The notes under the pieces are model-generated. The model searched no databases, was not told the DNA's origin, and was given only the letters and a program-made list of their open reading frames with translations. From the sequence record OZ035774.1: a DNA stretch of 44,649 nucleotides. The stretch is one strand, 5' to 3'. This DNA comes from Vectrevirus T147P9. Positions 1 to 44,649 of this stretch are shown here, piece after piece. The stretch's first letter is position 1; the number at the start of each line of letters is the position of its first letter. The position numbers and the translations under genes were made by a program.

Positions 1-29
1 TAATAAGTTCAAGATTTGGAGGGAGAAGC

Positions 30-329
30 GTGAGCGTACACAATAAACATGCAGCTACAGAGGACGAGGTTGGCATTCTGCATGGTGCTATTACCAAAAT
101 CTTCAATAAGAAAGCACAGGCAATACTGGACACTATAGAAGAAGACCCTGATGCAGCATTACATTTAGTGTCTGGTAAGGATATTGGTGCGATGTGTAAG
201 TGGGTTCTTGATAACGGCATTACCGCCACACCTGCTGCACAGCAGGAAGAGTCCAAGTTATCTAAGCGCCTCAAGGCTATCCGAGAGGCATCCAGTGGCA
301 AGATTATTCAGTTTACAAAAGAGGAGTGA
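30..329 (+). CDS. putative terminase small subunit (DNA maturase A-like)
   Basis: 99-aa ORF, GTG start at 30 with GGAGGGA RBS at 18-24; lies between the gp17.5-like holin and the terminase large subunit, i.e. the T7 gene 18 position. Call is by synteny and size only; no motif recognised. Confidence 0.5.
   Translation: MSVHNKHAATEDEVGILHGAITKIFNKKAQAILDTIEEDPDAALHLVSGKDIGAMCKWVLDNGITATPAAQQEESKLSKRLKAIREASSGKIIQFTKEE
121..143 (+). promoter_or_regulatory. phage RNAP promoter-like sequence (variant) inside terminase small gene
   Basis: caatactggacactatagaagaa; matches the window consensus ATTTACTGGACACTATAGAAG except at 2 upstream positions. Confidence 0.4.
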
Positions 330-330
330 T

Positions 331-774
331 ATGCATAGATGGTGTGAATCTCAAGGTTATACCATCTTACCTTCTGGTGTCATCCTTTCAAAGGGTGGCA
401 CCCCTCTCAAACCATTCAAGGCGGGTAGGGGTTATTTAGCAGTTAAAATTAAAAATAAAGAAGGTAAATGGCGTAATGTCTATGTTCATCAATTAGTGGC
501 TTATAAGTATTTACCTAAAACTAATAATGAAGTAAACCACAAAGACGGCGATAAGCACAACAATGATGTTAGCAACTTGGAGTGGGTAACAAGAAGCGAG
601 AATAACTATTTAAAATGCAATGGAAATGATAGGAGTGCCTTAAATAGCTATTTAGCAAGATTAAAAGATTGCTTCTTGCAAGGTAAGGGTGTAGCAGAAA
701 CCGCTAGACTTACTGGTAAAAGTGAACCAAGAGTTTCTTCTCTCTTTAAGGAGTGGCGAAATGGCAAAGGCTAG
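331..774 (+). CDS. HNH homing endonuclease
   Basis: ATG at 331 preceded by GAGGAG RBS (321-326); translation contains VHQLVAYKYLPKTNNEVNHKDGDKHNNDVSNLEWVTRSEN, the His-Asn-His/N-x-x-N pattern of phage HNH endonucleases; paralogous to the ORF at 18554..19033. The track ORF 184..774 is an unsupported N-terminal extension overlapping the previous gene. Confidence 0.75.
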   Translation: MHRWCESQGYTILPSGVILSKGGTPLKPFKAGRGYLAVKIKNKEGKWRNVYVHQLVAYKYLPKTNNEVNHKDGDKHNNDVSNLEWVTRSENNYLKCNGNDRSALNSYLARLKDCFLQGKGVAETARLTGKSEPRVSSLFKEWRNGKG

Positions 775-2659
775 AGAATCACAGGCAGAGGCATTAAAGC
801 GGTGGGAAAACCTTAAAGAACTACAAGACACTTTTAAATATACAGCGGAAGGTTTGCTTCTCTTTGCAGATACAGTTATCCATAACTTGATTGCAGGCAA
901 CCCTCATCTGATTCGTATGCAGGCTGATATCTTGAAGTTCCTATTCTACGGACATAAGTATCGCCTCATCGAAGCGCCTCGTGGTATCGCTAAGACAACA
1001 CTATCAGCAATCTACACGGTATTCCGTATTATCCATGAACCGCATAAGCGTATCATGGTTGTATCCCAAAACGCTAAGCGAGCAGAGGAAATCGCTGGTT
1101 GGGTGGTGAAAATCTTCCGTGGCCTAGACTTCCTTGAGTTTATGCTGCCGGATATCTACGCAGGGGACCGTGCATCCGTTAAAGCATTTGAGATTCATTA
1201 CACCCTACGTGGTAGTGATAAGTCTCCTTCTGTATCCTGTTACTCAATCGAAGCAGGTATGCAGGGTGCTCGTGCTGATATTATTCTAGCGGATGACGTA
1301 GAGTCGATGCAGAATGCTCGTACGGCAGCGGGCCGTGCCTTGCTTGAGGAACTGACTAAGGAGTTTGAATCTATCAACCAGTTTGGGGATATCATTTACC
1401 TTGGTACGCCTCAGAACGTAAACTCTATCTACAACAACCTACCTGCTCGTGGTTACTCTGTTCGTATCTGGACTGCGCGTTATCCTTCAGTAGAGCAAGA
1501 GCAATGTTATGGTGACTTCCTTGCACCTATGATTGTTCAAGATATGAAGGACAACCCAGCACTTCGCTCAGGGTACGGGTTGGATGGTAATAGTGGTGCA
1601 CCTTGTGCCCCTGAAATGTATGATGATGAAGTCCTGATTGAGAAGGAAATCTCTCAGGGTGCGGCTAAGTTCCAGCTTCAGTTCATGCTTAACACTCGCA
1701 TGATGGATGCAGACCGCTACCCACTACGCCTGAACAACCTCATCTTTACTTCGTTCGGTACAGAGGAAGTACCTGTAATGCCTACGTGGAGTAATGACTC
1801 TATTAACATCATTGGCGATGCCCCGAAGTATGGCAATAAACCTACAGACTTCATGTATAGACCTGTGGCTCGCCCGTATGAATGGGGTGCTGTTACACGC
1901 AAGATTATGTATATTGACCCTGCTGGTGGTGGTAAGAATGGGGACGAAACAGGCGTGGCTATAGTCTTTCTGCACGGCACATTCATTTACGTGTATCAGT
2001 GCTTCGGTGTGCCAGGCGGATACCGTGAATCGTCCCTGAATCGCATTGTGCAGGCCGCAAAGCAGGCGGGTGTTAAAGAGGTATTCATTGAGAAGAACTT
2101 TGGTCATGGCGCGTTTGAGGCCGTTATAAAGCCATACTTTGAACGAGAGTGGCCTGTAACTCTGGAAGAGGATTACGCCACAGGACAGAAAGAGTTGCGT
2201 ATCATTGAGACGCTGGAGCCACTCATGGCGGCACACAGGCTCATCTTTAACGCAGAGATGGTGAAATCGGACTTTGATTCGGTACAGAACTATCCGCTTG
2301 AGCTACGCATGTCCTACAGCCTTTTCAATCAAATGTCGAACATCACGATTGAGAAGAACAGCCTCCGGCACGATGACCGCTTAGACGCTCTGTATGGCGC
2401 TATACGGCAATTAACTTCTCAGATAGACTATGACGAGGTTACACGGATTAATCGCCTCAGAGCGCAGGAGATGCGCGATTACATCCATGCTATGAACACA
2501 CCTCACCTCCGCAGGGCGATGCTCTATGGAGATTATGGCACTGAGCGAAGAGTAACCAACACTTCCGTGGCTATGCAGCAAAGAGTGTACGGTCAGAATT
2601 ACAGGAGTAAATCGGCAAATCGAAATACACTTTCTGCAAGGATTTCAAGGACTTATTAA
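761..2659 (+). CDS. terminase large subunit (DNA maturase B)
   Basis: About 630-aa ORF; Walker-A-like segment (LIEAPRGIAKTT), C-terminal nuclease-like segment (YIDPAGGGKNGDETG); size and position match T7 gp19. Start taken at ATG 761 (RBS AAGGAGTGG 748-756); in-frame alternative at 722. Confidence 0.9.
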   Translation: MAKARESQAEALKRWENLKELQDTFKYTAEGLLLFADTVIHNLIAGNPHLIRMQADILKFLFYGHKYRLIEAPRGIAKTTLSAIYTVFRIIHEPHKRIMVVSQNAKRAEEIAGWVVKIFRGLDFLEFMLPDIYAGDRASVKAFEIHYTLRGSDKSPSVSCYSIEAGMQGARADIILADDVESMQNARTAAGRALLEELTKEFESINQFGDIIYLGTPQNVNSIYNNLPARGYSVRIWTARYPSVEQEQCYGDFLAPMIVQDMKDNPALRSGYGLDGNSGAPCAPEMYDDEVLIEKEISQGAAKFQLQFMLNTRMMDADRYPLRLNNLIFTSFGTEEVPVMPTWSNDSINIIGDAPKYGNKPTDFMYRPVARPYEWGAVTRKIMYIDPAGGGKNGDETGVAIVFLHGTFIYVYQCFGVPGGYRESSLNRIVQAAKQAGVKEVFIEKNFGHGAFEAVIKPYFEREWPVTLEEDYATGQKELRIIETLEPLMAAHRLIFNAEMVKSDFDSVQNYPLELRMSYSLFNQMSNITIEKNSLRHDDRLDALYGAIRQLTSQIDYDEVTRINRLRAQEMRDYIHAMNTPHLRRAMLYGDYGTERRVTNTSVAMQQRVYGQNYRSKSANRNTLSARISRTY

Positions 2660-3413: not shown

Positions 3414-3758
3414 ATGCTTAATAAATACTTCAAGCGACGCGAGTTCGCTTGCCGTTGTGGGTGCGGTACATCCACTGTTGATGCTGAATTACTACAGGTA
3501 GTAACAGATGTGCGTGAGCACTTTGGTTCTCCTGTAGTTATCACTTCGGGGCATCGCTGTGCTAAGCACAATGCTAATGTAGGAGGAGCTAAGAACTCCA
3601 TGCATCTTACTGGTAAGGCTGCTGACATTAAGGTACGAGGCATCTTACCTTCTGATGTACATAAGTATCTTACTGATAAGTACCAAGGCAAATATGGGAT
3701 TGGTAAGTATAACTCCTTTACTCATATTGATGTACGTGACGGGTGTGCACGATGGTAG
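3414..3758 (+). CDS. endolysin, peptidase M15 family (zinc D-Ala-D-Ala carboxypeptidase-like fold)
   Basis: SGHRCAKHNANVGGAKNSMHLTGKAADI and FTHIDVRD give the His/Asp/His zinc-ligand pattern of M15 peptidases; start at ATG 3414 (GAGG upstream), alternative ATG 3402. Confidence 0.8.
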   Translation: MLNKYFKRREFACRCGCGTSTVDAELLQVVTDVREHFGSPVVITSGHRCAKHNANVGGAKNSMHLTGKAADIKVRGILPSDVHKYLTDKYQGKYGIGKYNSFTHIDVRDGCARW

Positions 3759-4434: not shown

Positions 4435-6327
4435 ATGGCAAGATTAACTCGCCCTGTTAGTGTATTTAATAGTCTGATGGATATTACTTACCCATGCTCC
4501 ACTGATGGTGGTAAAGCGGAACTACTACAGGTTATACCCGGACGTATGTCTGGTGGTGGTATCCTACTTTGGGACGCCAGTATGCCTCAGTCCAATCATA
4601 ATGGTATTACCATCCTCAGCCCTGAAGCTAAATGGGATGGTACTCTAGAAGGTTTTAAGGCCTATAGGGAAAGTGGAGGGACTGGCAATGGTTGCTGGGT
4701 TCGACCACGCAAAGGTACTGATCTGATGGCATCTTGGGCTGGTGTTGACACAGACGGGGACTGGATTGCGGATGAGCCACTTATGGCGCTGTGTCAGATT
4801 GCACATACACAACGTCGTAATATACGCATAGACTCTGGTGCTGTCATTCGTTGCGGTTTCACAACTCCGATTTTTCAGCAAGACAAGCACAACATTCTAT
4901 CTCAAACATCTTTTGTATTACGTGGTTTAAAGAACTTCTCCATATATGCTGAGCAAGATGCAGAGATAATCACAGACCACCCTGTACATCGTGAGCGTAC
5001 AGTATTCTTCTTGGACGGTTGCGATAAGGTTACAATTTCTGGTCTTAAGTTTAATTCTGATTTCAGCGATTATTCTTTCGAACCTAATAGTCCCTATGAG
5101 CACCATATCAATGAACACTGGTTAGGTGTAGTTGCAGAGGCTTGTGGTACTGTTGAGGTTCGCAGATGTATGTTCAATGCACCTCAGTTTGCTGTAAAGG
5201 CCGACTGTTTTAATAGAACAGACGGTAGGTGGAATGACACAGTTGCAGTAAAAGATTGTTTCTTCCAGTATGCTACAAACTATTGCTTTTTATCACGTAA
5301 GTTACGACATTACATCTTCTCTGATAATGAAGTAAGATTTAATGGACGTAAGTGGCATACATATGGAGAGGCTTGTGCTCCTACTACCTATACTGAGAAT
5401 CAGATTATCACTCGTAACCGTTTCATAGATCAGATTGCTGGTCAAAGCTGTATAACTCCTGGTTCTTATGCTAAGCAAGTACTTATTTCAGATAACTTCT
5501 GTCAACGTAGTAATGGTATCTTTGTTGAGATAGGCAGTGCTAGTAATATTAATATTCTTAACAACGTCTCCAAATCTACAGGTGAACGCATCGTCCACGG
5601 AAGTGATAAGTATGCAGGAACTACACACATCCTTCTAGTATCTGGGGCAGTTGATGATGAACCTGCTGGTGGGCTAAGTAATATCTTGATTCAAGGTAAT
5701 AACTTCCAAGGCGGTGGTTATGCTTTACAAGAGTACAATACAGGCATCCCTATTCGTCGCGGGTTGGATATTCTTAATAACCACCTTGTAGACTGTATTC
5801 CACCAGCCTGTACTAACCAATCCTTTAAGTATATTAGGGTAGAAGGTAACTACATCCAAGCACCGGATGATTACCCAGATATGGCTATTGCAGGTCAACA
5901 CCCTATTATCAAGGATAATGTCCTTATCGGTGTGCGATTGAGGGCTAGAGATTTAGGTTATACTGTTGTAGGGTTAAAAGTAATAGGTAATACTTTTACT
6001 GCAAATAGTGTAGCATCTAAGTTCCCTGCACTGATAGACTACACTGATCTAGAAGATCTTGAAGCTTATGACAACGCAGCAGGTATTCAGGCATCTTATG
6101 ATAGCTTTATAGTAGCACCTGATAACTGTAATAAAATTAGCTTTATGAAAGTCGGTATGGTTGAAGGTTTTACACAGACACCAGCAGTGGTTTATGGTAG
6201 TAAGTTGCAAGAACAGAAGGCAGGTGCGATTATTGGCAATAGTGCACCTGGGTCTGTACATGGTTGTGCTGCATTCGTGAGTACTTCTAGTGGTGGTTGG
6301 GGTTTTATAAACTACGTTCCCGCATAA
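4435..6327 (+). CDS. tailspike protein 1 (putative capsule depolymerase with beta-helix-like repeats)
   Basis: About 630 aa; ATG 4435 after AGGAGG RBS; repetitive segments (ISGLKFNS, ILNNVSKS, IQGNNFQGGG, RVEGNYIQ, IGNTFTANS) suggest a parallel beta-helix; right-end position as in K1-5/SP6 tailspikes. Track start 4375 lacks an RBS. Confidence 0.65.
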   Translation: MARLTRPVSVFNSLMDITYPCSTDGGKAELLQVIPGRMSGGGILLWDASMPQSNHNGITILSPEAKWDGTLEGFKAYRESGGTGNGCWVRPRKGTDLMASWAGVDTDGDWIADEPLMALCQIAHTQRRNIRIDSGAVIRCGFTTPIFQQDKHNILSQTSFVLRGLKNFSIYAEQDAEIITDHPVHRERTVFFLDGCDKVTISGLKFNSDFSDYSFEPNSPYEHHINEHWLGVVAEACGTVEVRRCMFNAPQFAVKADCFNRTDGRWNDTVAVKDCFFQYATNYCFLSRKLRHYIFSDNEVRFNGRKWHTYGEACAPTTYTENQIITRNRFIDQIAGQSCITPGSYAKQVLISDNFCQRSNGIFVEIGSASNINILNNVSKSTGERIVHGSDKYAGTTHILLVSGAVDDEPAGGLSNILIQGNNFQGGGYALQEYNTGIPIRRGLDILNNHLVDCIPPACTNQSFKYIRVEGNYIQAPDDYPDMAIAGQHPIIKDNVLIGVRLRARDLGYTVVGLKVIGNTFTANSVASKFPALIDYTDLEDLEAYDNAAGIQASYDSFIVAPDNCNKISFMKVGMVEGFTQTPAVVYGSKLQEQKAGAIIGNSAPGSVHGCAAFVSTSSGGWGFINYVPA

Positions 6328-6412: not shown

Positions 6413-8125
6413 ATGCTTCAAAGATTAAGTGCTTACTTGGTGAAGTACAAGAGTAAACTAACAGGTACTATTGAGCGCCTGCTATCTGATAAACTATCGG
6501 ATACAATAGATGTTGCGGATTTTGGAGTTAATCCATCTTCTAATGACAACAGGCAAGCCCTTCAAGCTGCATTCAATGCGGTCAGATTTCTAGGCGGAGG
6601 TACTGTATCAGTCACTAAAGCTGGCGAATATAAACTCAGTGGTACTGTTGAGATATTTGCTAATACACACTTCAAGGTTGCTAAAGGTGTAACATTTGTA
6701 CGTGACTACGAAACAGGAGATACGCTATTCAGATTATCACAAGGGCAAGCTAGTAATGTAACAGTCAGTGGAGGTGTCTATGAAGGCAATGGTCACATTA
6801 AAGGAGATACACCTTTTGTAGTATTTGCATCTACTAGTAATAATGATTTGAAGTTTGAAGGCATAACAGTTAACAATGTAGTGGACTACCACGCCATAGA
6901 TTTAGCAGATTGGAACAACGTAGTTATTCGTGATTGTAAGTTCCTAGGGTTTAAGAATACAGGCAGTCGTAACTTCTCAGAGGCTATACAGTTAGACCCA
7001 GGACTTATTACAGTAGGTCGCTATGTGCAGTCTAGTGGTTTACTGGTAGAGAATTGCTATGCTGGCCCAAACCTTGATTCTGGATTTGGCGGGTATGGTG
7101 CTCTAGTAGGAAATCATGCATCAGCTTATGGTGTTCAAGATAACAACATTAGAATCCTAAATTGCACTACAGATGGTGCACTCTTTGCAGGTGTACGTGT
7201 ATTCAACTGGAAAAACTGGATAGTACGTGGTTGCACATTTAGAAACTCTAATGCAAGAGGTGTTCATGTTACACCTGTCTCCTCTCAAACTAAACCGCAA
7301 GGAACCCGACAAGGTAGTGTTGTAGATTGTACTTTTGATGGCGTAAGAACACCAGTGCTAATTGCTGCACCATCTTGGCCTTTTACCGATATTAGTGACA
7401 TTTGGCATGACCATATTGAAATTTCTAATAATACTATGATCCTCACAGAGGATGTATCCTATGGTGTAGATGCAAGGTGGTGTAAGAATTTAATTGTAAA
7501 AGGTAATACAGGCTCTGGTGGCTTAGGGTTAATCGGTTTACGCTTTGGGACAAAATACCACATCGAAGGTAATACTTGGGAAAATGGAAGAGGTAGTGGG
7601 ATTTGGTTAGGTGAGTCTGATGCTACTACATTCATTGGTACTGGCTTATCGGGCGAAGGTATACTTAGTCGTAATATCCTCTCTAAATTAGGGCAATATG
7701 GTATTCATGTAAACTGCAAGGTTGGCGGTCTAGTGATTAAGGCTAATAATATGAAGGAAGTATCTACAGCTGAAGCAGGTAGGCACTTCATTAGCATAGA
7801 CACAGGAGCTAACAACATCCTAGTAGAAGGTAATATTGGAGTAGATGGAGAAAGCCCTAACAAGCCAAGCCTTGGTATTCGTGTTACTTCTTCTTGCTCC
7901 AATATTAAACTAATTGGCAATGATTGCTATGGTACACAGGCGCCTCAGAATAACCAAGGAGTCGGTTCTAGTACGGTGATTGTTTATGGACTAAATGGCA
8001 ATCCTACAACTTTAGGCGTAGGTGCACCTGTAGGCTCTTTAGCAACTGATATCAATGGGTCTGGTGGTGGTACATTGTACGTTAAAGAATCTGGTACATC
8101 TGCTCAAGGTTGGGTTGCAAAGTAG
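6413..8125 (+). CDS. tailspike protein 2 (pectate-lyase-superfamily-like depolymerase)
   Basis: 570 aa; AAGGAGG RBS 6402-6408; N-terminal VADFGVNPSSNDNRQALQAAFNAV...GGGTVSVTKAGEYKLSGTV resembles the pectate-lyase-3 opening of phage depolymerases, followed by Gly/Asn-rich beta-helix-like repeats. Confidence 0.7.
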   Translation: MLQRLSAYLVKYKSKLTGTIERLLSDKLSDTIDVADFGVNPSSNDNRQALQAAFNAVRFLGGGTVSVTKAGEYKLSGTVEIFANTHFKVAKGVTFVRDYETGDTLFRLSQGQASNVTVSGGVYEGNGHIKGDTPFVVFASTSNNDLKFEGITVNNVVDYHAIDLADWNNVVIRDCKFLGFKNTGSRNFSEAIQLDPGLITVGRYVQSSGLLVENCYAGPNLDSGFGGYGALVGNHASAYGVQDNNIRILNCTTDGALFAGVRVFNWKNWIVRGCTFRNSNARGVHVTPVSSQTKPQGTRQGSVVDCTFDGVRTPVLIAAPSWPFTDISDIWHDHIEISNNTMILTEDVSYGVDARWCKNLIVKGNTGSGGLGLIGLRFGTKYHIEGNTWENGRGSGIWLGESDATTFIGTGLSGEGILSRNILSKLGQYGIHVNCKVGGLVIKANNMKEVSTAEAGRHFISIDTGANNILVEGNIGVDGESPNKPSLGIRVTSSCSNIKLIGNDCYGTQAPQNNQGVGSSTVIVYGLNGNPTTLGVGAPVGSLATDINGSGGGTLYVKESGTSAQGWVAK

Positions 8126-8284: not shown

Positions 8285-9115
8285 GCAGGTTAATATCTTA
8301 GTGTACACAAGGGCAGACCTAGGTTTGCTCTTAGTGTATTTACAATGGAGGTCTTATGTATATACCTATTGAAGCAATAGTAGGTTGCCTATGTTTGTTG
8401 ATAGGTTTCGTTATAGGCGTAATAGCAAAGCCTTAGTACTGTACAAGGATTAACCAAAGTCAAAATTTTGATATAGGCGTGTGTCAGCTCTCTCGCCCTC
8501 GCCCTCGCCGGGTTGTCCCCATAGGGTGGCCTGAGGGAATCCGTCTTCGACGGGCAGGGCTGATGTACTCCTTCGCTAGTACAAGGGAGGCGGAGTGAAC
8601 GCCTGGGACGGCCTAGGGAATGGCTTAGTGGTGGACAAGGTGATTACCTTAGTGAAGCCTCTTAGTGCATTCCTTAGGCCATTCAGGGCGTTTATGAGGG
8701 ATTGACAGGGTGGGTGTGGGTGGGCTATCTGTTCGTTTCGCCTAGCGGCTACACTCACTGGCTAGCTTGCGCTACGTTCACTCGCTCACGTGTACCTTAT
8801 GCTATTACTTGATGGATAGCTTAGGTTAACCTTAGTGGACTGCCTTAGTTAAAGCCTTAGTGCTTATCTTAGTATAGCTTAGTATTGTACCTTAGTAAGT
8901 CTTAGTGTCTTCTCTTAGTGATTGCACATGCAAGCATGTAAGATGCCATTAGGTCGCGGTCGGTAGACCGCTAAAGAAAGAGAACAGTAATAAGATGCAG
9001 TAGGAGGAACACCAGAAGCCTAGCCAACCTAGCCTATCCTAGCTCTGTATCTATTGCTTTTCCTTAGTCTCACATGTTAGACAACCTATCTTATTCTTAG
9101 TGATGATAACTTAGT

Positions 9116-9144
9116 GTTGACAAGATAATCTTAGTGTAATACTA
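9116..9144 (+). promoter_or_regulatory. candidate host sigma70 early promoter
   Basis: TTGACA (9116-9121), 17-bp spacer, TACTAT; lies upstream of the early genes in the expected place for host-RNAP early promoters. Sequence match only. Confidence 0.3.
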
Positions 9145-9217
9145 TGCATCACGTAGGCGGTGCTGAGGCACCTAGTAGCCAGCTAGTAAGGCATACGAAG
9201 AGACTAGCGCTTACATT

Positions 9218-9230
9218 GCTCTTTAACAAT
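9218..9230 (+). promoter_or_regulatory. RNase III site-like conserved element (copy 1)
   Basis: GCTCTTTAACAAT occurs three times in the early region; the same string is recalled from the T7 early RNase III site upstream of gene 0.3. Confidence 0.4.
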
Positions 9231-9288
9231 TTGCTTAGTGTAACCTATGTATGCCGTGGTTAATTACTTATTGAATGAGGGATTAACT

Positions 9289-14865: not shown

Positions 14866-15087
14866 ATGGCTAAATACAGGATTAAGACGTGTTTAAACAA
14901 TCAGGGGCATGAGTGCTATATAGTACAGCGTAAGGTTCTACTGGGCTTGCTGTGGGTTACTTGTATGATGCCTATTGGCTACACTGACACTGAAGCCATC
15001 TTTGGCACGGAAGATGATGCCTACAGATTCATCGCTAAACGTAGAAAAGTAGAACGTTATAAACACAGAATTATTAAGGTAAACTAA
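14866..15087 (+). CDS. hypothetical protein
   Basis: 73-aa ORF abutting the primase-helicase start; no motif recognised. Confidence 0.5.
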   Translation: MAKYRIKTCLNNQGHECYIVQRKVLLGLLWVTCMMPIGYTDTEAIFGTEDDAYRFIAKRRKVERYKHRIIKVN

Positions 15088-32010: not shown

Positions 32011-32016
32011 TCAGTA

Positions 32017-32040
32017 TTTACTGGACACTATAGAAGGGAG
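32017..32040 (+). promoter_or_regulatory. phage RNAP promoter (consensus copy) driving the capsid gene
   Basis: atttactggacactatagaaggga, about 47 bp upstream of the capsid ATG. Confidence 0.8.
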
Positions 32041-32086
32041 AAATGTCTCCCTAAATTATCAATTTGATTTATAAGGAGGTTTATTA

Positions 32087-33292: not shown

Positions 33293-33300
33293 TACCTATG

Positions 33301-33333
33301 CCCTATCTACCCTGCGTAGGTAGGGTTCTTTTT
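33301..33333 (+). terminator. late terminator after the capsid gene (T-phi analogue)
   Basis: ccctatctac-cctgc-gtaggtaggg (10-bp stem with one G-U) followed by ttcttttt, 9 bp after the capsid stop. Confidence 0.7.
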
Positions 33334-33346
33334 GTTAGGAGGGTTC

Positions 33347-36486: not shown

Positions 36487-37208
36487 TGGCTATAGGTTCA
36501 GCCGTTATGGCTGGTATGTCTTCTATTGGTAGTATGTTTGCAGGCAGCGGTGCAGCAGCCGCTGCTGGAGGTGCTGCCGCAGGTGGCGGAGGCTTGCTAG
36601 GTTCTCTAGGTGGCTTCCTAGGCGGCTCTACTGCTGGCTTCTCTAATGCTGGGCTTCTTGGTGCTGGCCTTCAAGGTTTAGGCTTGATTGGTGATCTCTT
36701 TGGTGGAAGTGATGAAGCCAAGGCAATGAAGAAAGCACAAGAAGAACAGTGGCGGCAGCAACTTATTGCTACACAAGAAGCATACAAAACAGTAGCAGAT
36801 GCAGAGCGTTCTGCTGCTAAACAATATCATGCAGATGCAATAAGCAATCAGGCTTCACTACTACAGCAGCGAGCACAGGTTGCATTACTAGCAGGTGCTA
36901 CTGGTACTGGTGGTAACTCTGTATCTTCTATGCTGAATGACTTAGCAGCAGAGGGCGGGAGGAACCAGAGTACAATTATTGATAACTATGAGAATCAGAA
37001 GATTAACTTCACCAATCAGCTTAAGTCTATCCAGCGAGGTGGACAGATGCAGATGCGTGAGTTTAAGAAGCCTTCTGCCGTAAGTACCTTGGTGCAAGGT
37101 ATTCCAAGTCTGGCTTCTGCTTATGTAACTGGTAGCAAGTCGGGCATGGCTTTAGGTAAAGCTCTAACGGATTCTCGTACATATTCATCTGGAACAAGAG
37201 GTATTTAA
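36486..37208 (+). CDS. internal virion protein (Gly/Ala-rich, gp13/gp14-class)
   Basis: 240 aa (ATG 36486, AAGGAGGG RBS); Gly/Ala-rich N-terminal segment typical of small internal core proteins. Confidence 0.6.
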   Translation: MAIGSAVMAGMSSIGSMFAGSGAAAAAGGAAAGGGGLLGSLGGFLGGSTAGFSNAGLLGAGLQGLGLIGDLFGGSDEAKAMKKAQEEQWRQQLIATQEAYKTVADAERSAAKQYHADAISNQASLLQQRAQVALLAGATGTGGNSVSSMLNDLAAEGGRNQSTIIDNYENQKINFTNQLKSIQRGGQMQMREFKKPSAVSTLVQGIPSLASAYVTGSKSGMALGKALTDSRTYSSGTRGI

Positions 37209-40156
37209 TGGCAATTGAGCGACAAGCAGTACAAGGCCTGCCACAAGTGCAGGCCACTTCTCCTAATGTCATGACCTTTGCACCTCAGCAAGTTGGAGGT
37301 GTGGAGGCTGGCGTAGCTTCTACCTCCGGTAGTCGATTTATCGAAGACCTTATTCGAGCAGCCAGTAGTGTAGCTGATGTTACCACGGGTATCCTTAATC
37401 AGAAGATTGAGGAGGATAAGGTTGTTCAAATGGAACGGGCATATAATGGATTAATGCCTTCTGAGGATGCAACTCGTGGTGGCGCTCGTGCTAACATGCT
37501 TGTCAAAGCTCAACTGCTAGCTAATGATGAAGCAGCACGAATGAAAGACATGGCTACTCGTTTCCAAGGAACAGATGACGAGTGGACACAACTCATGGTT
37601 GACTCTCGTAATGAGATGCAGAATAAACTGTTCCAGCAATACCCTGAGTTGCAAGGTGACAAAGATACTATGCGTATGGTCACTAATGTCTTCCAAGAAC
37701 AGCAGCCTCAGATTTGGGCTACACGAACCCAGCATAAACTTGACCGCGAACAAGCAGACCGTGAGGATACCTTTGACGGGCGAGTGGCTTCTACTTGGGA
37801 TTCTAGTATTGACCCCGAAGCTTCTGGTTATGCCCTACAGGAGCGAATCCGCGAGGGATTTACTCAAGGACTATTACCTGAGCAGATGCATAAGAAGCTG
37901 GTAGAGCGAGCTATTTCACTTGCTCAGGGTGGTGATATTAGCATGGCTGAAGCCTTGAAGTACGTGAAGGACGATAAGGGTGTTTCTGTCTATGCTAAGA
38001 ATCCGCAGCTTATCACAGCTATCACTAATGGTAATGCAGTTTGGGCTAGGAATAATGTTGCTGATGTGACTCGCATGTCTTTTGAAGTCAAAGAGTCCTA
38101 TCTTGCAGGTGACTTGACGGATGAAGAATTACTGGAGCGAGCACAGCACATTAATAGCCTGACAGGAAACTCTGTCTTCTCTAATCCAGAACTAGAAGCA
38201 CTGATGCGCCAACGAGCTAAGCAGAATGCAGAGCTAGGTGCAATGCAGGATATGCGACGTGAACTTTACTCTGATCGCATGACTGGCTTCCAAGGTAAGA
38301 CAGATAAAGAGAAGAAAGCCTACATTGATGTTATCAAACAGGATAGCCAACTATATGCAGACCAGCAAATCAAACAACGTGGCTTGGACCCTTACAGTCA
38401 AGAGGCTGAAGCTATTCGTGGTGCAGTGGAAGTGCAGCGCCTGCAATTCATGAACTCCAAAGGCTTAGTGGATGACACCTTTGAGTCTCGTATCAAAGCC
38501 ATGGAGTCTATGCTATCACCTGAGCACTTCGCTAAAGGAGAACCACAGGAGTTAATGACTATTCGTCAGTTGTGGGAACAGTTACCAGAAGAAAGCCGAG
38601 GTGTCTTTGGTGATACGGTGAATGGCTATATGGATAACTACAACACTGCATTACAAATGGGAGAGACGCCCTTGCAGGCTGCAAGGTTTGCCCGTGAAGC
38701 ACAGCAGAAATTCTCTCGTACTGAGAAAGAAACCAAGAAGTTCAACTCAGCTATTGGAGATGCACTGGATGAGGTATCTGGTGCTGGCTGGTTTGATGGT
38801 AAAACCGAAGTGTCCGACTTAGGTAAAGCTATTGCAGAAGAAGAGTTACGAGCTAAGGCCAATATGCTGTGGTCTAGCGGTATGCGTAACATGGATTCCA
38901 TCAAGAAGGCTTTAATTACTTGGGGCAATAAACGCTACACTCAATCAGAGGATGCAAAGACTTCCGGTGGTTATTTCATTAAAGGTGATTACACTTCTGC
39001 ATCTGACATGCTTATGTCTGTTGGGAAAGGTGTAAACCCTACCGATGTACCTCTGGCGCTTGGTAGGTATGTAGAGACACAAATGCCAGAATTGAAGAAG
39101 GAACTTCAAGAGTGGGAAACTAAGGATGATGTATACATTGATTACAATGAGCAGAAAGGTACTTTCGTGATTCGTGCTGGTGCAGCAGGTCGCCCTCTTT
39201 CTGGAGTAATCCCTGTCACCTCTTTAGATACCACTTCACTACTAGACTCTGCCTATCAGAAGAAAGTAGAAGAACGAGATAAAGGTGAATATGTTCACCC
39301 ATATCGTACAGATATCGGTGCACAAGAACCTATGCCAGCTAAGCCAACTGCCAAGGATATTGGTAAATTTGGACTAGCTAATTTCCTCATGTCTTCTGCC
39401 TTTGCTTCTGGTGAGAATCTACCTTCTAACTTCGAGATTAACTATAGAGGCAACATGCAACAATTCTATGACAAGCTAGCTATGGATGAGAATGGCGATA
39501 AGCTGGGCTTCAACAAAGCCACAGGAACCTTCACACCGTACAAAGATGCACATGGCGAGTCTGTAGGCTACGGTCACTTCCTTACGGAAGAAGAAAAGAG
39601 AAATGGGTACATTAAGATTGGTGACGAACTAGTTCCGTATCGCGGCTCTATGTCTCAGCTCACTGAGAGTAAGGCCCGTGCTCTTATGGAACAAGATGCC
39701 AAGAAGCATGTACCTCCAACTCGTGATTGGAAAATCCCATTCGACCAGATGCATCCGGCACAGCAGCGCGGTTTAATGGATTTAACCTATAACTTAGGTA
39801 AAGGTGGAATCCAGAATGCACCGCGTGCTCTTGCTGCATTCAAGGCAGGTAAGCTTACAGAAGGCTTTATCGAAATGCTGGGTACTGCATCCAGTGAAGG
39901 TAAGCGTATTCCTGGTTTACTGAAGCGACGCGCTGAGGCTTACAATATGGCATCTGCCGGTGGTGTACCTAAGATTACCGAAGTAGAGACTCGTGAAGAT
40001 GGGTCTATGTGGGTTAAGTTCGGCGGACCTATGCCAGCAGGTTCTGTATCTGCATGGACTCATAAACGTATTGGCGCTGATGGCTGGTATCAGGTTTATG
40101 AGGCTGCACCTACCAAGTTAGCTAAAGGCTCTAAGGTAGGTAAAGTTAAGTTGTAG
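37208..40156 (+). CDS. internal virion (ejectosome) protein with C-terminal T4-lysozyme-like (GH24) domain
   Basis: 982 aa; C-terminal TPYKDAHGESVGYGHFL and QRGLMDLTYNLGKGG...GKRIPGLLKRRAEAYNM resemble T4 lysozyme segments (YKDTEGYYTIGIGHLL; ALINMVFQMG...RAKRV). Confidence 0.75.
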   Translation: MAIERQAVQGLPQVQATSPNVMTFAPQQVGGVEAGVASTSGSRFIEDLIRAASSVADVTTGILNQKIEEDKVVQMERAYNGLMPSEDATRGGARANMLVKAQLLANDEAARMKDMATRFQGTDDEWTQLMVDSRNEMQNKLFQQYPELQGDKDTMRMVTNVFQEQQPQIWATRTQHKLDREQADREDTFDGRVASTWDSSIDPEASGYALQERIREGFTQGLLPEQMHKKLVERAISLAQGGDISMAEALKYVKDDKGVSVYAKNPQLITAITNGNAVWARNNVADVTRMSFEVKESYLAGDLTDEELLERAQHINSLTGNSVFSNPELEALMRQRAKQNAELGAMQDMRRELYSDRMTGFQGKTDKEKKAYIDVIKQDSQLYADQQIKQRGLDPYSQEAEAIRGAVEVQRLQFMNSKGLVDDTFESRIKAMESMLSPEHFAKGEPQELMTIRQLWEQLPEESRGVFGDTVNGYMDNYNTALQMGETPLQAARFAREAQQKFSRTEKETKKFNSAIGDALDEVSGAGWFDGKTEVSDLGKAIAEEELRAKANMLWSSGMRNMDSIKKALITWGNKRYTQSEDAKTSGGYFIKGDYTSASDMLMSVGKGVNPTDVPLALGRYVETQMPELKKELQEWETKDDVYIDYNEQKGTFVIRAGAAGRPLSGVIPVTSLDTTSLLDSAYQKKVEERDKGEYVHPYRTDIGAQEPMPAKPTAKDIGKFGLANFLMSSAFASGENLPSNFEINYRGNMQQFYDKLAMDENGDKLGFNKATGTFTPYKDAHGESVGYGHFLTEEEKRNGYIKIGDELVPYRGSMSQLTESKARALMEQDAKKHVPPTRDWKIPFDQMHPAQQRGLMDLTYNLGKGGIQNAPRALAAFKAGKLTEGFIEMLGTASSEGKRIPGLLKRRAEAYNMASAGGVPKITEVETREDGSMWVKFGGPMPAGSVSAWTHKRIGADGWYQVYEAAPTKLAKGSKVGKVKL

Positions 40157-40173
40157 TACCTAACTCAAGGCTT

Positions 40174-40189
40174 GTCTCACATGTGAGAC
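40174..40189. repeat. 16-bp perfect palindrome GTCTCACATGTGAGAC (copy 6 of 6)
   Basis: Context ggcttgtctcacatgtgagacaggtctttatg is near-identical to copy 3 including the U-rich tail. Confidence 0.9.
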
Positions 40190-40220
40190 AGGTCTTTATG
40201 ATAGGCACTATGGAGGAACT

Positions 40221-43200
40221 ATGGAACAAGATATTAATACTAATTGGGCTGGTTATGTCCAGTCTACTCCTGAGCCGTTTTCTATTGAGGCGGCTCCGGT
40301 ATCGGCTCCTACGATACGCCAGCGTAATGAGCTACAAGAGCAAGTCCTTGAAGCTAAAGCAGACGCGGATATCTTAGGTGCTGTAGGTGCTGCCTTCCAG
40401 AATGAGTGGTTGGCATTCGGAGGTAAGAGATGGTATGACCGTGCCACTGCTGACTTCACACCCCAACCTGACTTTGAAATCCAACCAGAGCAACGTGAAG
40501 CTCTTCGCTTCAAATACGGAACGGATATGATGCAGACAATCACTGAGGGTGTTAGGTCTGAGGATGAATTAAACTTCCGTATTCAGAACGCTGATGAAGA
40601 CCTTGAGCGTAATAAACGTATTGCGCAGGCTGGCTGGGCTGGCTCTGTGGCAACGATTGGCGCTGCTGTGCTTGACCCAGTGGGTTGGGTTGCCTCTATC
40701 CCAACTGGCGGTGCAGCCAAAGTCGGCCTCGTAGGTCGTGCCGTGCGTGGCGCTATCGCCGCTGGCGTGAGCAATGCCGCTATTGAATCCGTGTTAGTAC
40801 AAGGCGACATGACTCGTGATTTAGATGACATTATGGTAGCACTAGGCTCCGGTATGGCTATGGGTGGCGTTATTGGCGCTGTAGCGCGTGGTAGGGCCAC
40901 TAAGCTCAGCGAGCAAGGGGATGACAGGGCTGCGAGTGTTGTGCGCAGTGCAGATGCAGGGGACCGCTATGTTCGTGCCGTTGCCGATGACAGTATAGGT
41001 GCGATGCGTGTTAAGGGTGAAGAGGTACTCACTGAGGGCGCATTTGATATATCTAGTAAAGGTGAAGACTTGCTGAAAACATTGCAGAGGGAAGGGAACG
41101 CTATTGACATGACCCCTCGCCGCTGGGCCGGAACTTTGTCTGCCCTTGGTACTGTCGTACATTCCTCTCAGGATGCAAGTGTACGCGGTCTTGGTGCTCG
41201 CCTGTTTGAGTCCCCGCAAGGCTTAGGTGCACAGAAGGCATCGGCTAGTCTCATGCAGAATACTAACTTGAACCGTCTGAAATCTGCTGATATGAATCGT
41301 TTCAACGATGGGTTCGATTTATGGCTCAAAGAGAATAATATCAATCCGGTTGCAGGTCATACTAACTCTCACTATGTGCAGCAATATAATGAGAAGGTAT
41401 GGGAAGCTGTACGCATCGGTATGGATGAGTCTACGCCTAAGTCTATCCGTATGGCAGCAGAGGGGCAGCAAGCTATGTATCGTGAAGCATTAGCATTACG
41501 TCAACGCTCTGGTGAAGCTGGGTTTGAAAAGGTTAAAGCAGATGATAAGTACATGCCTGATATTTTTGACAGTATGAAGGCTCGTCGTCAATTCGGTATG
41601 CACGATAAAGAGGACATCATTGAGCTATTCTCTCGTGCATACCAGAATGGTTCTCGTAAGGTTCCAAAGGAAGTGGCTGATGATATTGCACGTGCACAAG
41701 TAAACCGCGTTGCTGATGCCACCTTGACCGGACAGCTTAGCTTTGAAAAGGCTATGTCTGGTCAAACCAAAGCAGAATATGAAGCACTCATGCGCAAAGC
41801 AGGCTTTAGTGATGAAGAGATTGAAAAGATGGTAGAAGCTCTGGATAATAAAGAAACCAGAGATAATATCTCTAACCGAGCTAAGATGAGTTTAGGCTTA
41901 GATGTTACTCAAGAGTACAATGGCATTCGTATGCGTGACTTTATGAACACTAACGTGGAAGAGTTAACAGATAACTACATGAAGGAAGCGGCAGGTGGTG
42001 CTGCCTTGGCTCGTCAAGGTTTCTCTACCTATCAGGCTGCACTTAGTGCAATTGACCTTGTAGAGCGAAATGCACGAAATGCAGCTAAAGATACAAAAGC
42101 ACACGCACAATTTGAAGCGGAGTCTGCTAAGATTCGTCAATCAGAGCCTGATTACAAGAAGGCACAAGAGAAGATTGAAGAGTTAAAGAAGAGACTTAAA
42201 TTGAAAGAGAAAGATGAAGCAGCAGGTCTGGCTGTTGATGAAGAAATCCGTCAGATGCGAGAAGGGCTTCGCTTAATTATGGGTAAATCTATCGATGCAG
42301 ACCCACAGACTTTGTCTAATAAAATGCTGCGTCGTGGTCGTGACATCACAGGCGTACTTCGCTTAGGTCAGATGGGCTTCGCACAGCTAGGTGAACTTGC
42401 TAACTTCATGGGTGAGTTTGGTATTGCTGCAACCACTATAGCTTTAGGTAAGCAATTCCGCTTTACATCTAAAGCTTTGCGGAGCGGGGATGGCTTCTTC
42501 CGAGATAAGAACTTGGCAGAAGTAGAGAGGATGGTAGGTTACATTGGTGAGGATAACTGGCTAACAACCAAGGGTGCACGTCCAGATGAGTTTGGTGATG
42601 TAACCACAGTAAGAGGGATGATGGTTCACTTTGACCAATCCATGAACTCAATACGTCGTGCTCAGACCAACCTATCGCTCTTCCGCATGGCACAGGGTTC
42701 TCTGGAGCGAATGACTAATAGGCAAATAGCCTTGTCTTTCATTGACCACCTTGAAGGCAAGAAGATTATTCCTCAGAAGAAACTGGAGGAACTTGGTCTT
42801 ACTCAGGGGTTCATGACTAACCTACAGAAGCACTATGATGCTAACTCTAAAGGTTCTGGCTTGCTTGGATTTGATACAATGCCTTATGCCATGGGTGAAA
42901 CTTTAGCTAATGCTATTCGTCGTAAGTCAGGTCTAATTATCCAACGTAACTTCATTGGTGATGAAGGGATCTGGATGAACAAAGCGCTTGGTAAAACTTT
43001 TGCACAGCTTAAGTCTTTCTCTTTGGTATCTGGTGAGAAGCAATTTGGTCGAGGTATTCGCCACGATAAGATTGGTCTTGCTAAGAAGACAGCCTATGGG
43101 TTTGCTTTAGGTTCCATAGTATATGCAGCGAAAGCTTATGTGAACTCTATTGGACGAGAAGACCAAGATGAATATCTGGAAGAGAAACTATCCCCTAAAG

Positions 43201-43529
43201 GGTTGGCTTTTGGTGCTATGGGTATGATGAGTACAACTGCTGTGTTTAGCTTAGGTGGAGACTTCTTAGGCGGCCTAGGTGTTCTCCCTTCTGAGTTAGT
43301 ACAATCCCGTTATGAGGCTGGCTTTCAGACTAAGGGTTTGATAGACCAAATACCACTAGTAGGTGTTGGTCAAGATGCATATCGTTTAGCAGATTCTATA
43401 ACTAAATATGCAGAGGGTGATACAGAAGGTGTAGATGTGGCACGTAGGGCTTTACGCTTAGTGCCTCTAACTAATGTAATAGGAATCCAGAACGCATTGC
43501 GTTATGGCTTAGATGAACTGGAGGATTGA
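40221..43529 (+). CDS. large internal virion/core protein (gp16-class)
   Basis: 1102-aa ORF after two other internal virion protein genes; Gly/Ala-rich hydrophobic segment near residues 130-200; call by size and synteny. Confidence 0.7.
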   Translation: MEQDINTNWAGYVQSTPEPFSIEAAPVSAPTIRQRNELQEQVLEAKADADILGAVGAAFQNEWLAFGGKRWYDRATADFTPQPDFEIQPEQREALRFKYGTDMMQTITEGVRSEDELNFRIQNADEDLERNKRIAQAGWAGSVATIGAAVLDPVGWVASIPTGGAAKVGLVGRAVRGAIAAGVSNAAIESVLVQGDMTRDLDDIMVALGSGMAMGGVIGAVARGRATKLSEQGDDRAASVVRSADAGDRYVRAVADDSIGAMRVKGEEVLTEGAFDISSKGEDLLKTLQREGNAIDMTPRRWAGTLSALGTVVHSSQDASVRGLGARLFESPQGLGAQKASASLMQNTNLNRLKSADMNRFNDGFDLWLKENNINPVAGHTNSHYVQQYNEKVWEAVRIGMDESTPKSIRMAAEGQQAMYREALALRQRSGEAGFEKVKADDKYMPDIFDSMKARRQFGMHDKEDIIELFSRAYQNGSRKVPKEVADDIARAQVNRVADATLTGQLSFEKAMSGQTKAEYEALMRKAGFSDEEIEKMVEALDNKETRDNISNRAKMSLGLDVTQEYNGIRMRDFMNTNVEELTDNYMKEAAGGAALARQGFSTYQAALSAIDLVERNARNAAKDTKAHAQFEAESAKIRQSEPDYKKAQEKIEELKKRLKLKEKDEAAGLAVDEEIRQMREGLRLIMGKSIDADPQTLSNKMLRRGRDITGVLRLGQMGFAQLGELANFMGEFGIAATTIALGKQFRFTSKALRSGDGFFRDKNLAEVERMVGYIGEDNWLTTKGARPDEFGDVTTVRGMMVHFDQSMNSIRRAQTNLSLFRMAQGSLERMTNRQIALSFIDHLEGKKIIPQKKLEELGLTQGFMTNLQKHYDANSKGSGLLGFDTMPYAMGETLANAIRRKSGLIIQRNFIGDEGIWMNKALGKTFAQLKSFSLVSGEKQFGRGIRHDKIGLAKKTAYGFALGSIVYAAKAYVNSIGREDQDEYLEEKLSPKGLAFGAMGMMSTTAVFSLGGDFLGGLGVLPSELVQSRYEAGFQTKGLIDQIPLVGVGQDAYRLADSITKYAEGDTEGVDVARRALRLVPLTNVIGIQNALRYGLDELED

Positions 43530-44491
43530 TGAGTTATACTTTCACAGAACATATAGCCAACGGTACGCAAGTAACCTATCCCTTTAGCTTTGCTGGTAGG
43601 GATAAAGGTTATCTTCGTGCCTCAGATGTGATAGTGGAATCTCTTCAAGGTAACACTTGGATTGAGGTTACATCTGGCTGGCAATTAACTGGCACGCACC
43701 AGATTACTTTTGATGTAGCACCAGTTGCAGGTTTGAAGTTCCGTATTCGAAGGGAAGTACAAAAGGAATATCCATACGCTGAGTTTGACCGTGGTGTTAC
43801 CTTGGATATGAAGTCTTTAAATGGTTCTTTCATTCATATACTGGAGATTACACAGGAGTTACTTGACGGGTTTTATCCAGAAGGATACTTCATTAAACAG
43901 AATGTAAGCTGGGGCGGCAATAAGATTACTGATTTGGCTGATGGCACAAATCCGGGAGATGCAGTAAATAAAGGGCAGCTTGATGCCATTGACAAGAAGC
44001 ATACAGATTGGAACACCAAACAGGATATTGAGATTGCTGGCCTTAAAGCAGGTATGACTTCTGGTATTGCGCACAGAACTATCCCTTGGTACACGATCGC
44101 CCAAGGAGGTGAGGTTTCCGTAAAACCTCCTTATGAATTTCAAGATGCACTAGTTTTCCTTAATGGGGTCTTGCAACACCAAATCGTAGGCGCATACTCT
44201 ATAAGCAGCAACACTATCACTTTCGCAGAGCCACTTGTGGCTGGCACAGAGGTGTATGTGCTGATTGGCAGTCGTGTGGCTACATCTGAACCTAATATTC
44301 AGTTAGAGTTGAACTTTGACTTAGTAGAAGGCCAACAAGTAGTACAGATTGGCTCTGCATTTAAGTACATTGAGGTCTACCTTGATGGATTATTACAACC
44401 TAAACTTGCTTATCAGGTAGACGGTGTCATTGTTACTTTCTCAGAAAGAGTACCAGAATGCCGGATGACTGCTAAGATTATCACAGCATAA
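43526..44491 (+). CDS. tail fibre adaptor protein (homologue of the T7 gp17 N-terminal tail-attachment domain)
   Basis: 321 aa; TYPFSFAGRDKGYLRASDVIVESL and IRREVQKEYPYAEFDRGVTLDMKSLNGSFIHILEITQE parallel the N-terminus of T7 gp17 but the protein lacks a long fibre shaft. Confidence 0.75.
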   Translation: MMSYTFTEHIANGTQVTYPFSFAGRDKGYLRASDVIVESLQGNTWIEVTSGWQLTGTHQITFDVAPVAGLKFRIRREVQKEYPYAEFDRGVTLDMKSLNGSFIHILEITQELLDGFYPEGYFIKQNVSWGGNKITDLADGTNPGDAVNKGQLDAIDKKHTDWNTKQDIEIAGLKAGMTSGIAHRTIPWYTIAQGGEVSVKPPYEFQDALVFLNGVLQHQIVGAYSISSNTITFAEPLVAGTEVYVLIGSRVATSEPNIQLELNFDLVEGQQVVQIGSAFKYIEVYLDGLLQPKLAYQVDGVIVTFSERVPECRMTAKIITA

Positions 44492-44500
44492 GGAGGTAGG

Positions 44501-44649
44501 ATGATTAACTCCGAACTGGTAGATAGTGGTGTGAAGCTTGCGCCACCTGCACTCGTATCAGGTGGGTACTTCCTCGGTATCAGTTGGGATAATTGGGTGT
44601 TAATCGCAACATTCATTTATACCGTGTTGCAAATTGGGGACTGGTTTTA
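44501..44649 (+). CDS. class II holin, T7 gp17.5-like (3' end beyond window; continues in frame at position 1-46)
   Basis: MINSELVDSGVKLAPPALVSGGYFLGISWDNWVLIATFIYTVLQIGDWF resembles remembered T7 gp17.5; AGGAGG RBS; no stop before the window end; reading on from position 1 gives a basic tail and a stop at 44-46. Confidence 0.75.
   Translation, partial: MINSELVDSGVKLAPPALVSGGYFLGISWDNWVLIATFIYTVLQIGDWF

Follow-up and report, generated by a model that had tools for sequence, protein, structure and literature searches.

A holin gene divided between the two ends of the record

The window analysed here is the whole of record OZ035774.1, 44,649 nucleotides. At its right end lies the 5' part of a gp17.5-like holin gene (44501..44649, plus strand). 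Its ATG at 44501 is preceded by a GGAGG ribosome-binding site, and the open reading frame then runs without a stop for 149 nt, that is 49 codons and 2 nt, until it is cut by the window end. The 3' part is found at the opposite end (1..46, plus strand): 1 nt, then the 14 codons that specify the basic tail YNKFKIWREKRERTQ, and a TAA at 44-46. When bases 1-46 are appended the frame is kept, and the result is an open reading frame of 195 nt whose 64-residue product ends ...DWFYNKFKIWREKRERTQ.

The joined protein is identical to K1-5 gp38 at 63 of its 64 residues and 100% identical to the holins of ULINTec7, EEc4 and VEc3. It covers profile positions 1-61 of the 61 in PF10746 (E 1.5e-27; 95.5 bits, the curated cut-off being 25.4), and this full-length match is obtained only when both window ends are joined. 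In addition it matches phrog_920 (holin) and can be aligned with T7 gp17.5 over the full length of both proteins, at 32% identity. An earlier reading of the sequence alone had proposed that the holin gene is split across the window ends, and these results bear it out. From its family, the protein would be expected to permeabilise the membrane and trigger lysis; holin experiments exist only for a distant SP6-like homologue, KBNP1315 ORF46 (PMC4640515).

Directly downstream is the gene for the terminase small subunit (30..329, plus strand; GTG start, 99 amino acids, PF11123 and phrog_891), which is identical to K1-5 gp39 at 98 of 99 residues. The two genes overlap by 17 nt, and the sequence-only reading was right to place the holin stop at 44-46 beyond the GTG start. 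Its comparison of this overlap with T7 does not hold: there gene 17.5 ends at 36547 and gene 18 starts at 36553, so that the genes are adjacent without overlapping. The overlap is a trait of the SP6/K1-5 group.

Gene content and promoters

The features given with coordinates in this section are all on the plus strand. The gene for the large terminase subunit, of the T7 type (761..2659), encodes a protein 98.7% identical to ULINTec7 TerL; it contains the T7-type RNaseH-like domain PF22530 (E 1.5e-35) and also matches terminase large-subunit phrogs. It is followed by a peptidase M15 endolysin gene (3414..3758; PF08291, E 5.5e-33; 90% identical to the ULINTec7 homologue) and by two tailspike genes. 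The first (4435..6327, 630 amino acids) stands where K1-5 has its K5 lyase gene and is unrelated to that gene past the first few codons. The second (6413..8125, 570 amino acids) encodes a beta-helix protein (PF13229, phrog_2234), takes the place that the endosialidase gene has in K1-5, and is common to T147P1, EEc4, LL11 and others.

Further to the right are the genes for a single-subunit phage RNA polymerase (11781..14408; 875 amino acids, 98.6% identical to the ULINTec7 polymerase, with Pfam RPOL_N and RNA_pol found on the gene call from the Logan assembly described below), an uninterrupted primase/helicase (15087..17075) and a DNA polymerase (19020..21530, PF00476). The structural module (29540..44491) comprises portal, scaffold, major capsid, tail tube A and B, three internal virion proteins and a tail-fibre adaptor, each of which maps once, at 91-100% identity to ULINTec7. 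All ULINTec7 homologues keep their order, that of the T7 supergroup, and lie on the plus strand, with the tailspike genes (4435-8125) downstream of the large terminase gene. The proteins of ULINTec7 map to the window once or not at all, in agreement with the earlier statement that each module is present once. A tRNA scan and an Rfam scan of the window found no RNA genes.

A candidate sigma-70-type early promoter (TTGACA, 17 nt, TACTAT; 9117..9145) was recognised by its match to the consensus, and its role is suggested by its position, close to the predicted left end of the genome and inside it. The motif of predicted phage promoters of the K1-5/SP6 type, (A)TTTACTGGACACTATAGAAG, occurs in 11 copies, all 11 on the plus strand, and 10 of the 11 sites are homologous to motif positions in K1-5. 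Transcription would then proceed from left to right, from host-type promoters inside the left end through the RNA polymerase gene to the 11 K1-5-type phage promoters.

The window contains three endonuclease genes. One HNH gene separates the two terminase genes, another precedes the DNA polymerase gene, and an endonuclease VII-like gene follows the DNA polymerase gene. The first (331..774; PF13392, phrog_59) encodes a homing endonuclease; compared with K1-5, the inserted stretch is 331-760. Thirteen other records carry the gene at 99.6% identity or more. Elsewhere these genomes differ by 5-8%, and a gene so nearly invariant would be consistent with a homing element whose spread is still under way. 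In HK97-type cos phages an HNH protein takes part in packaging. We rejected such a role here, because the gene is absent from K1-5 and ULINTec7 as well as from EEc4, KAW1A4500 and SP6, in which the two terminase genes are directly adjacent; it thus behaves as an optional insertion.

An independent assembly and the genome of K1-5

Run ERR12949603 is represented in Logan by contig ERR12949603_66 (44,679 bp). Its first 30 nt are identical to its last 30 nt, an overlap of k-1, and the contig therefore represents a circular sequence of 44,649 bp, which is precisely the window length. The break in this contig lies elsewhere, near window 17.4 kb, and the holin gene is intact. An exact match of 15,309 nt extends from window 34221 through the junction to 4880, with window 44649 and window 1 directly adjacent and no base missing. 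The terminal-repeat region is single-copy in this contig.

A whole-genome alignment to K1-5, a check that had been named together with the proposal of a complete SP6/K1-5-like genome, runs collinearly straight through the junction from the end of the window to its start. Positions 32944-35367 of K1-5 align to window 42226-44649, and 35368-35697 continue at window 1-330. Over nearly the whole genome the two are related by collinear blocks of 85-97% nucleotide identity.

The terminal repeat and the predicted physical ends

The exact 234-bp direct terminal repeat of K1-5 maps to the window once, at 8493-8727, with 94-95% identity. One copy is what a collapsed assembly should contain. By homology to the ends of K1-5, KAW1A4500 and SP6 we assign the single collapsed repeat to 8489..8727 (plus strand). 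The predicted left end of the genome is 8489 by SP6, 8491 by KAW1A4500 and EEc4, or 8493 by K1-5; this ambiguity of up to 4 nt is caused by a TCTCTC run. The inner boundary follows 8727 (...GTGGGCTA|TCTGTT). KAW1A4500 has an exact repeat of 267 bp with the same boundaries as in the window, and in the alignment the two ends of SP6 fall on these boundaries, TCTCTCGGCC... at window 8489 and ...GTGGGCTA at 8727. At least eight records stop at the base matching 8727 (AAPEc6, VEc3, R4596, P3a, EC120, Mt1B1_P10, KAW1A4500 and K1-5), and that of Mt1B1_P10 carries a direct terminal repeat annotation. For SP6-like phages direct terminal repeats have been reported, including Bal31 mapping for UAB_Phi78 (PMC4837284, PMC6563267, PMC4640515).

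In and beside the repeat there is a cluster of CTTAGTR heptamers (8297..9240), which holds 17 of the 37 copies in the window, 17 of 17 on the plus strand. Shuffled sequences give a mean of 15.4 copies per whole window, compared with the 37 observed.

The real ends had earlier been placed in a non-coding region at 8.4-8.9 kb. The location is supported by the repeat homologue at 8493-8727, while the description as non-coding has to be modified, since small open reading frames at 8135-8284 and 8357-8437 lie to the left of the repeat.

Discussion

It is almost certain, in our judgement, that the window holds the full genome of a lytic podophage of the K1-5-like genus Vectrevirus, a coliphage whose virion DNA is linear and, as in T7, SP6 and K1-5, carries short direct terminal repeats. 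The arbitrary first base of the record cuts a small holin gene; this is an artefact of assembly and deposition and not biology. The split gene, the collinearity with K1-5, an independent assembly that closes as a circle, and the single repeat copy with conserved boundaries are observed directly, while homology is what points to the physical ends at about 8489/8493 to 8727 and to a duplication of the repeat that probably takes place during packaging.

The layout of the record is best explained as follows. A short-read assembler would merge both copies of the terminal repeat into one, and with the two copies collapsed the contig closes as a circle. This circle would then have been linearised at an arbitrary base, homologous with the one used in the OZ0357xx Vectrevirus series, and the chosen base happens to lie inside the gene of the 64-residue gp17.5-type holin, shortly before the gene for the small terminase subunit. 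The first and last bases of at least nine OZ0357xx Vectrevirus records are homologous to the window ends, and consequently the holin gene is split there likewise. The series consists of single contigs assembled with SPAdes from Nextera short reads, and the preprint by Gaborieau et al. contains no statement of a rule for the choice of start point (bioRxiv 10.1101/2023.11.22.567924). An end duplication of the SPAdes type was considered as well and rejected, because no repeat longer than 10 nt is shared between the window ends.

The sequence-only reading had described a circularised assembly of a linear, terminally redundant genome, and both the independent circle of 44,649 bp and the single repeat copy support that description. 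The term circularly permuted, which it also used, is correct for the layout of the record and not for the virion DNA. With a natural left end at about 8489-8493, TCTC(TC)GCCC..., and a repeat reaching 8727, the virion DNA would be the rotated window plus a second copy of 235-239 bp, a predicted length of about 44,884-44,888 bp (about 44.88 kb).

Three other explanations deserve consideration. If the window boundaries were real physical DNA ends, the holin would be truly truncated at ...QIGDWF. We give this practically no credence: all that speaks for it is that the record is linear with such ends, and it is refuted by the independent assembly, which joins 44649 to 1 without a missing base and breaks at another place. 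Further, the basic C-terminal tail, whose absence from homologues had been named in advance as the sign of a genuine end, is present in all holin homologues including T7 gp17.5; the PF10746 match requires residues up to 59; and the ends of K1-5 map 8.5 kb away from those of the window. It is also highly unlikely, though a shade less so, that the contig is an incomplete or chimeric product of mixed Vectreviruses and its completeness accidental. Identity is indeed mosaic, with some genes 100% identical to ULINTec7, a DNA polymerase at only 85% and tailspikes at 99% to T147P1. Modular mosaicism is, however, common in Vectrevirus, a second assembler yields the same 44,649-bp circle from run ERR12949603, and the gene order agrees throughout with that of K1-5, core genes being neither duplicated nor missing.

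Slightly more weight, but still very little, can be given to a genome without fixed ends, either a true circle or a headful-packaged, terminally redundant and permuted molecule, for which any linearisation would be equally valid. The assembly is circular, and closure alone fits collapsed fixed repeats and headful permutation alike. Against this stand a large terminase of the T7 type, 98.7% identical to the enzyme of close relatives, and sharp repeat boundaries conserved in K1-5, KAW1A4500, SP6 and at least eight record ends. The T7-like end motifs and heptamer arrays at the repeat argue in the same direction, as do the direct terminal repeats of SP6-like phages mapped experimentally (PMC4837284).

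The split-holin finding adds no new biology, and its value is practical. Linear annotation of this record and of at least nine sister records loses or truncates the holin gene, and such records understate the length of the virion DNA by one repeat copy, about 235-239 bp. The correct form is obtained by rotating to about 8491 and adding the second copy, and would be useful for comparative genomics or for engineering this coliphage, which is of the therapeutic type.

Comparison with related phages

The phage belongs to the genus Vectrevirus, subfamily Molineuxvirinae, family Autographiviridae, and shows 92-96% identity to many Vectrevirus records. Closest overall are T147P1 (OZ035788.1, OZ035797.1) and other OZ0357xx Vectrevirus records: in the first 25 kb, 90% is covered at 96.3% identity, and the remainder is covered completely at 95.4%. 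At the nucleotide level the two tailspike genes of T147P1 are 99.3-99.6% identical to those of the window. The T147P1 genome is about 940 bp shorter and, from a shift in coordinates of about 440 bp, appears to be without the insertion that carries the HNH gene (331-760).

The August 2025 phage collection does not include the window itself; the best match there has 96% identity over 90%, and the product of identity and coverage to the nearest record is estimated at about 90%, where the species line is 95%. It is conceivable, although we lean slightly the other way, that the isolate represents a separate Vectrevirus species that combines a tailspike pair of the T147P1 type with replication and structural modules resembling those of ULINTec7 and with three endonuclease genes. 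If so, the interpretation of the split holin would be unchanged.

K1-5 (AY370674 / NC_008152), the type member of Vectrevirus, is collinear with the window in gene order, and its gp38 and gp39 have the same lengths and the same 17-nt overlap as the holin and small terminase here. In contrast to the window, which holds a single repeat copy, the K1-5 record has the physical left terminus as its first base and holds both copies of 234 bp. The window further differs from K1-5 in having other tailspikes, with no K5 lyase or endosialidase, and in the extra HNH gene between the terminase genes and the HNH and endonuclease VII-like genes before and after the DNA polymerase gene.

SP6 (NC_004831, Zindervirus) shares the subfamily with the window but not the genus, and has only distant nucleotide similarity to it. 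Its holin (35399-35596) and small terminase (35580-35879) genes overlap by the same 17 nt. The terminal repeat of SP6 is shorter in the alignment, and its tailspikes are P22-like.

T7 (NC_001604) has the same holin family and the same order of holin and small terminase, but its genes 17.5 and 18 are 5 nt apart while those of the window overlap, and no tailspike genes follow its terminase genes. The T7 repeat is 160 bp. The terminal repeats of T7 and the window both start with TCTC, carry CCCCATAGGG, have CTATCTGTT at the inner boundary and are flanked by heptamer arrays, and the CCTAAAG arrays at the ends of T7 are comparable to the CTTAGTR cluster of the window.

The window ends interrupt a holin gene

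The final 149 bases of the window (44501-44649) begin at an ATG served by a GGAGG ribosome-binding site, and no stop codon follows. Window bases 1-46 keep the same frame (TA/T AAT AAG ... CAA TAA, the slash marking the junction) and bring a stop at 44-46. The joined ORF of 195 nt encodes MINSELVDSGVKLAPPALVSGGYFLGISWDNWVLIATFIYTVLQIGDWFYNKFKIWREKRERTQ, confirming the sequence-only reading that a frame open from 44501 to 44649 resumes at base 1. The protein is identical at 63 of 64 positions to gp38 of K1-5, the Escherichia phage that is the type member of Vectrevirus, and shows 100% identity with the annotated holins of its relatives ULINTec7, EEc4 and VEc3. It covers the whole profile of the T7 holin family PF10746 (1-61 of 61; 95.5 bits, cut-off 25.4) and matches phrog_920, holin. 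T7 gp17.5 aligns with it end to end, including the basic C-terminal tail, so this homologue does not stop at ...QIGDWF, the form that the earlier reading had named as evidence against the joined frame. From family membership alone we infer that the split gene may act in lysis.

The small terminase gene (30-329, + strand, GTG start, 99 aa; 98 of 99 residues identical to K1-5 gp39) overlaps the holin gene by 17 nt. The overlap is equally long in K1-5 (35219-35413 and 35397-35696) and in the Salmonella phage SP6 (35399-35596 and 35580-35879). In T7, by contrast, the end of gene 17.5 (36547) precedes the start of gene 18 (36553), without overlap; the overlap claimed earlier is there, but its likeness to T7 is one of gene order only. 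A near-consensus promoter motif, AATACTGGACACTATAGAAGAAG, lies within the small terminase gene at 129-151, with a K1-5 counterpart at 35496.

The split gene may not be the sole holin gene, or not the main one. A second small protein of 49 aa (3867-4016, phrog_4712), also labelled holin, adjoins the M15 endolysin, and the SP6 record annotates both positions as holin; either of the two may therefore be the main holin. Further small ORFs nearby are found at 3752-3883, 4009-4230 and 4094-4303. Two overlapping ORFs in different frames 3' of the phrog_4712 protein resemble a spanin pair, and an Rz-like spanin or o-spanin is annotated in this region in relatives.

Artificial window ends

Three window proteins were searched for as exact sequences, and all of them occur on one contig only, Logan ERR12949603_66 (44,679 bp), an independent assembly from run ERR12949603. 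Its first and last 30 nt are the same, CATGTATCATGTAGAATATGAGGATGGTAT, which fits a closed circle for an assembly k that we take to be 31. Without this overlap the circle is 44,649 bp, exactly as the window. The contig is broken within a gene near window position 17.4 kb, and an exact match of 15,309 nt runs from window 34221 through 44649 and 1 to 4880. Gene calls on the contig give an unbroken PF10746 protein of 64 aa, and after it the small terminase, HNH and large terminase genes. We regard this assembly as direct evidence for artificial window ends. A comparison of the two window ends found no duplicated sequence.

K1-5 bases 32944-35367 correspond to window 42226-44649 and bases 35368-35697 to window 1-330, so that the K1-5 alignment is unbroken through the junction. 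Further, at least nine unannotated OZ0357xx Vectrevirus records have first and last bases that correspond by homology to window 1 and 44649 (OZ035788.1, OZ035797.1, OZ035776.1, OZ035817.1, OZ035792.1, OZ035816.1, OZ035727.1, OZ035769.1 and OZ035735.1). This shared start points to one common re-orientation rule, and these records presumably split the holin gene alike and hold no second repeat copy. For that series, SPAdes was run on Nextera/MiniSeq reads, and the assembly was "in one single contig" (bioRxiv 10.1101/2023.11.22.567924).

Predicted position of the real ends

The K1-5 record has an exact direct terminal repeat of 234 bp, and both copies map to a single window site, 8493-8727, at 94-95% identity. 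Immediately left of this site lies the unique right-end sequence of K1-5, ...GTGTGTCAGCTCTC, and immediately right its unique left-end sequence, TCTGTTCG.... In the relative KAW1A4500 an exact repeat of 267 bp begins with TCTCGCCC and closes with ...GTGGGCTA; when aligned, the SP6 ends (TCTCTCGGCC... and ...GTGGGCTA) fall on the boundaries of the KAW1A4500 and window repeats. Eight records (K1-5, AAPEc6, VEc3, R4596, Raoultella phage P3a, EC120, KAW1A4500 and Mt1B1_P10) end at the base corresponding to window 8727, and Mt1B1_P10 is annotated there with a 267-bp direct terminal repeat. The left end falls within a TCTCTC run, and its position therefore varies with the reference: 8489 (SP6), 8491 (KAW1A4500, EEc4) or 8493 (K1-5). 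Homology thus narrows the earlier placement of the real ends, 8.4-8.9 kb, to about 8489/8493 and 8727. From these boundaries a repeat of 235-239 bp and virion DNA of 44,884-44,888 bp are predicted.

The Logan contig has one copy of the repeat region, identical to the window. Among SP6-like phages, direct terminal repeats have been described for UAB_Phi78 (179 bp, Bal31-tested; PMC4837284), KAW1A4500 (266 bp) and R4596 (428 bp; both PMC6563267), and KBNP1315 (208 bp; PMC4640515).

The Logan circle, the collinearity with K1-5 and the single repeat copy together support a circularised assembly of a linear, terminally redundant genome. The description "circularly permuted" holds for the record and not for the virion DNA.

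Gene content and departures from relatives

A megablast of the window against 50,697 phage records matched solely SP6-like phages, Vectrevirus among them. Vectrevirus T147P1 (OZ035788.1) ranks first, with 96.3% identity over 90% of 1-25000 and 95.4% at full coverage of 25001-44649. From these figures we estimate identity times coverage at roughly 90%. The phage belongs to a well-described genus, and relative to the closest record of this collection it may lie under the 95% species line; separate species status, if true, would be routine.

K1-5 aligns in collinear blocks of 85-97% identity. The 57 annotated ULINTec7 proteins each map at most once to the rotated window, with double matches only for HNH genes and one paralogous gene pair, which bears out that every module is present once. 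Single-copy genes encode the RNA polymerase, primase/helicase, DNA polymerase, exonuclease, ligase, portal, scaffold, capsid, both tail-tube proteins, three internal virion proteins, adaptor fibre, holin, both terminase subunits and M15 endolysin. The promoter motif (A)TTTACTGGACACTATAGAAG occurs 11 times on the + strand of the window and never on the - strand, 10 of the 11 at sites homologous to K1-5 copies; the one at 17031 has no counterpart in the K1-5 scan. Scans of the window for tRNA genes and Rfam families were negative.

Those segments departing from K1-5 that were searched separately each have near-identical counterparts elsewhere. An HNH (HNH_3) endonuclease gene at 331-774 separates the terminase genes, which in K1-5 and ULINTec7 lie directly side by side. 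In 13 Vectrevirus records this insert shows 99.6-100% identity, with flanking genomes that differ by 5-8%, a pattern that suggests a recently spreading homing element. Another HNH gene, upstream of the DNA polymerase gene (18554-19033), is 100% identical to the ULINTec7 copy; downstream, a 121-aa endonuclease VII/HNH-like ORF (21540-21905, phrog_3322) takes the place of K1-5 genes 13.5 and 14, both small. For the DNA polymerase, identity to the ULINTec7 and K1-5 enzymes is only 85%, against 98-100% for neighbouring genes. The primase/helicase gene is intact (15087-17075), unlike that of ULINTec7 (6722-9497), which an HNH-carrying insertion splits; the insertion is annotated there as a phage intron.

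Neither tailspike gene (4435-6327 and 6413-8125) is related to the K5 lyase or the K1 endosialidase of K1-5. The pair is shared with T147P1 only (99.3-99.6% identical); the second by itself is found in many phages (EEc4, LL11, EC120 and others). Two tandem paralogous genes (2814-3092 and 3105-3392; 38% mutual identity), homologues of K1-5 gp41/gp42, belong to phrog_2725, whose label "acetyl-CoA acetyltransferase" looks doubtful for proteins of 92-95 aa.

Packaging and comparison with T7

The window holds one unique genome, with a single repeat copy between right-end and left-end sequences, the arrangement of a concatemer junction. The large terminase is of the T7 type (PF22530). By analogy with the established biology of T7, replication of this phage would give head-to-tail concatemers in which each junction holds a single copy of the repeat; the terminase would cut them at fixed sites, and packaging would double the repeat. 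Short reads of such DNA would yield a circular assembly. Early transcription would probably start at promoters of the host type a short way in from the left end, where 9117-9145 (TTGACA-17-TACTAT) is a candidate, and later pass to the phage RNA polymerase acting on its 11 promoters.

The interruption of a gene through rotation of a record with a collapsed repeat is a well-known artefact. The heptamer CTTAGTR is strongly clustered on the + strand within and around the terminal repeat: 17 of its 37 window copies lie in 8297-9240, all on that strand, and 37 copies in the whole window were reached by none of 100 shuffles. The repeat region matches the T7 end architecture in its TCTC start, in CCCCATAGGG about 25 nt into the repeat and in CTATCTGTT at the inner boundary, and the CTTAGTR array stands in the place equivalent to that of CCTAAAG in T7.
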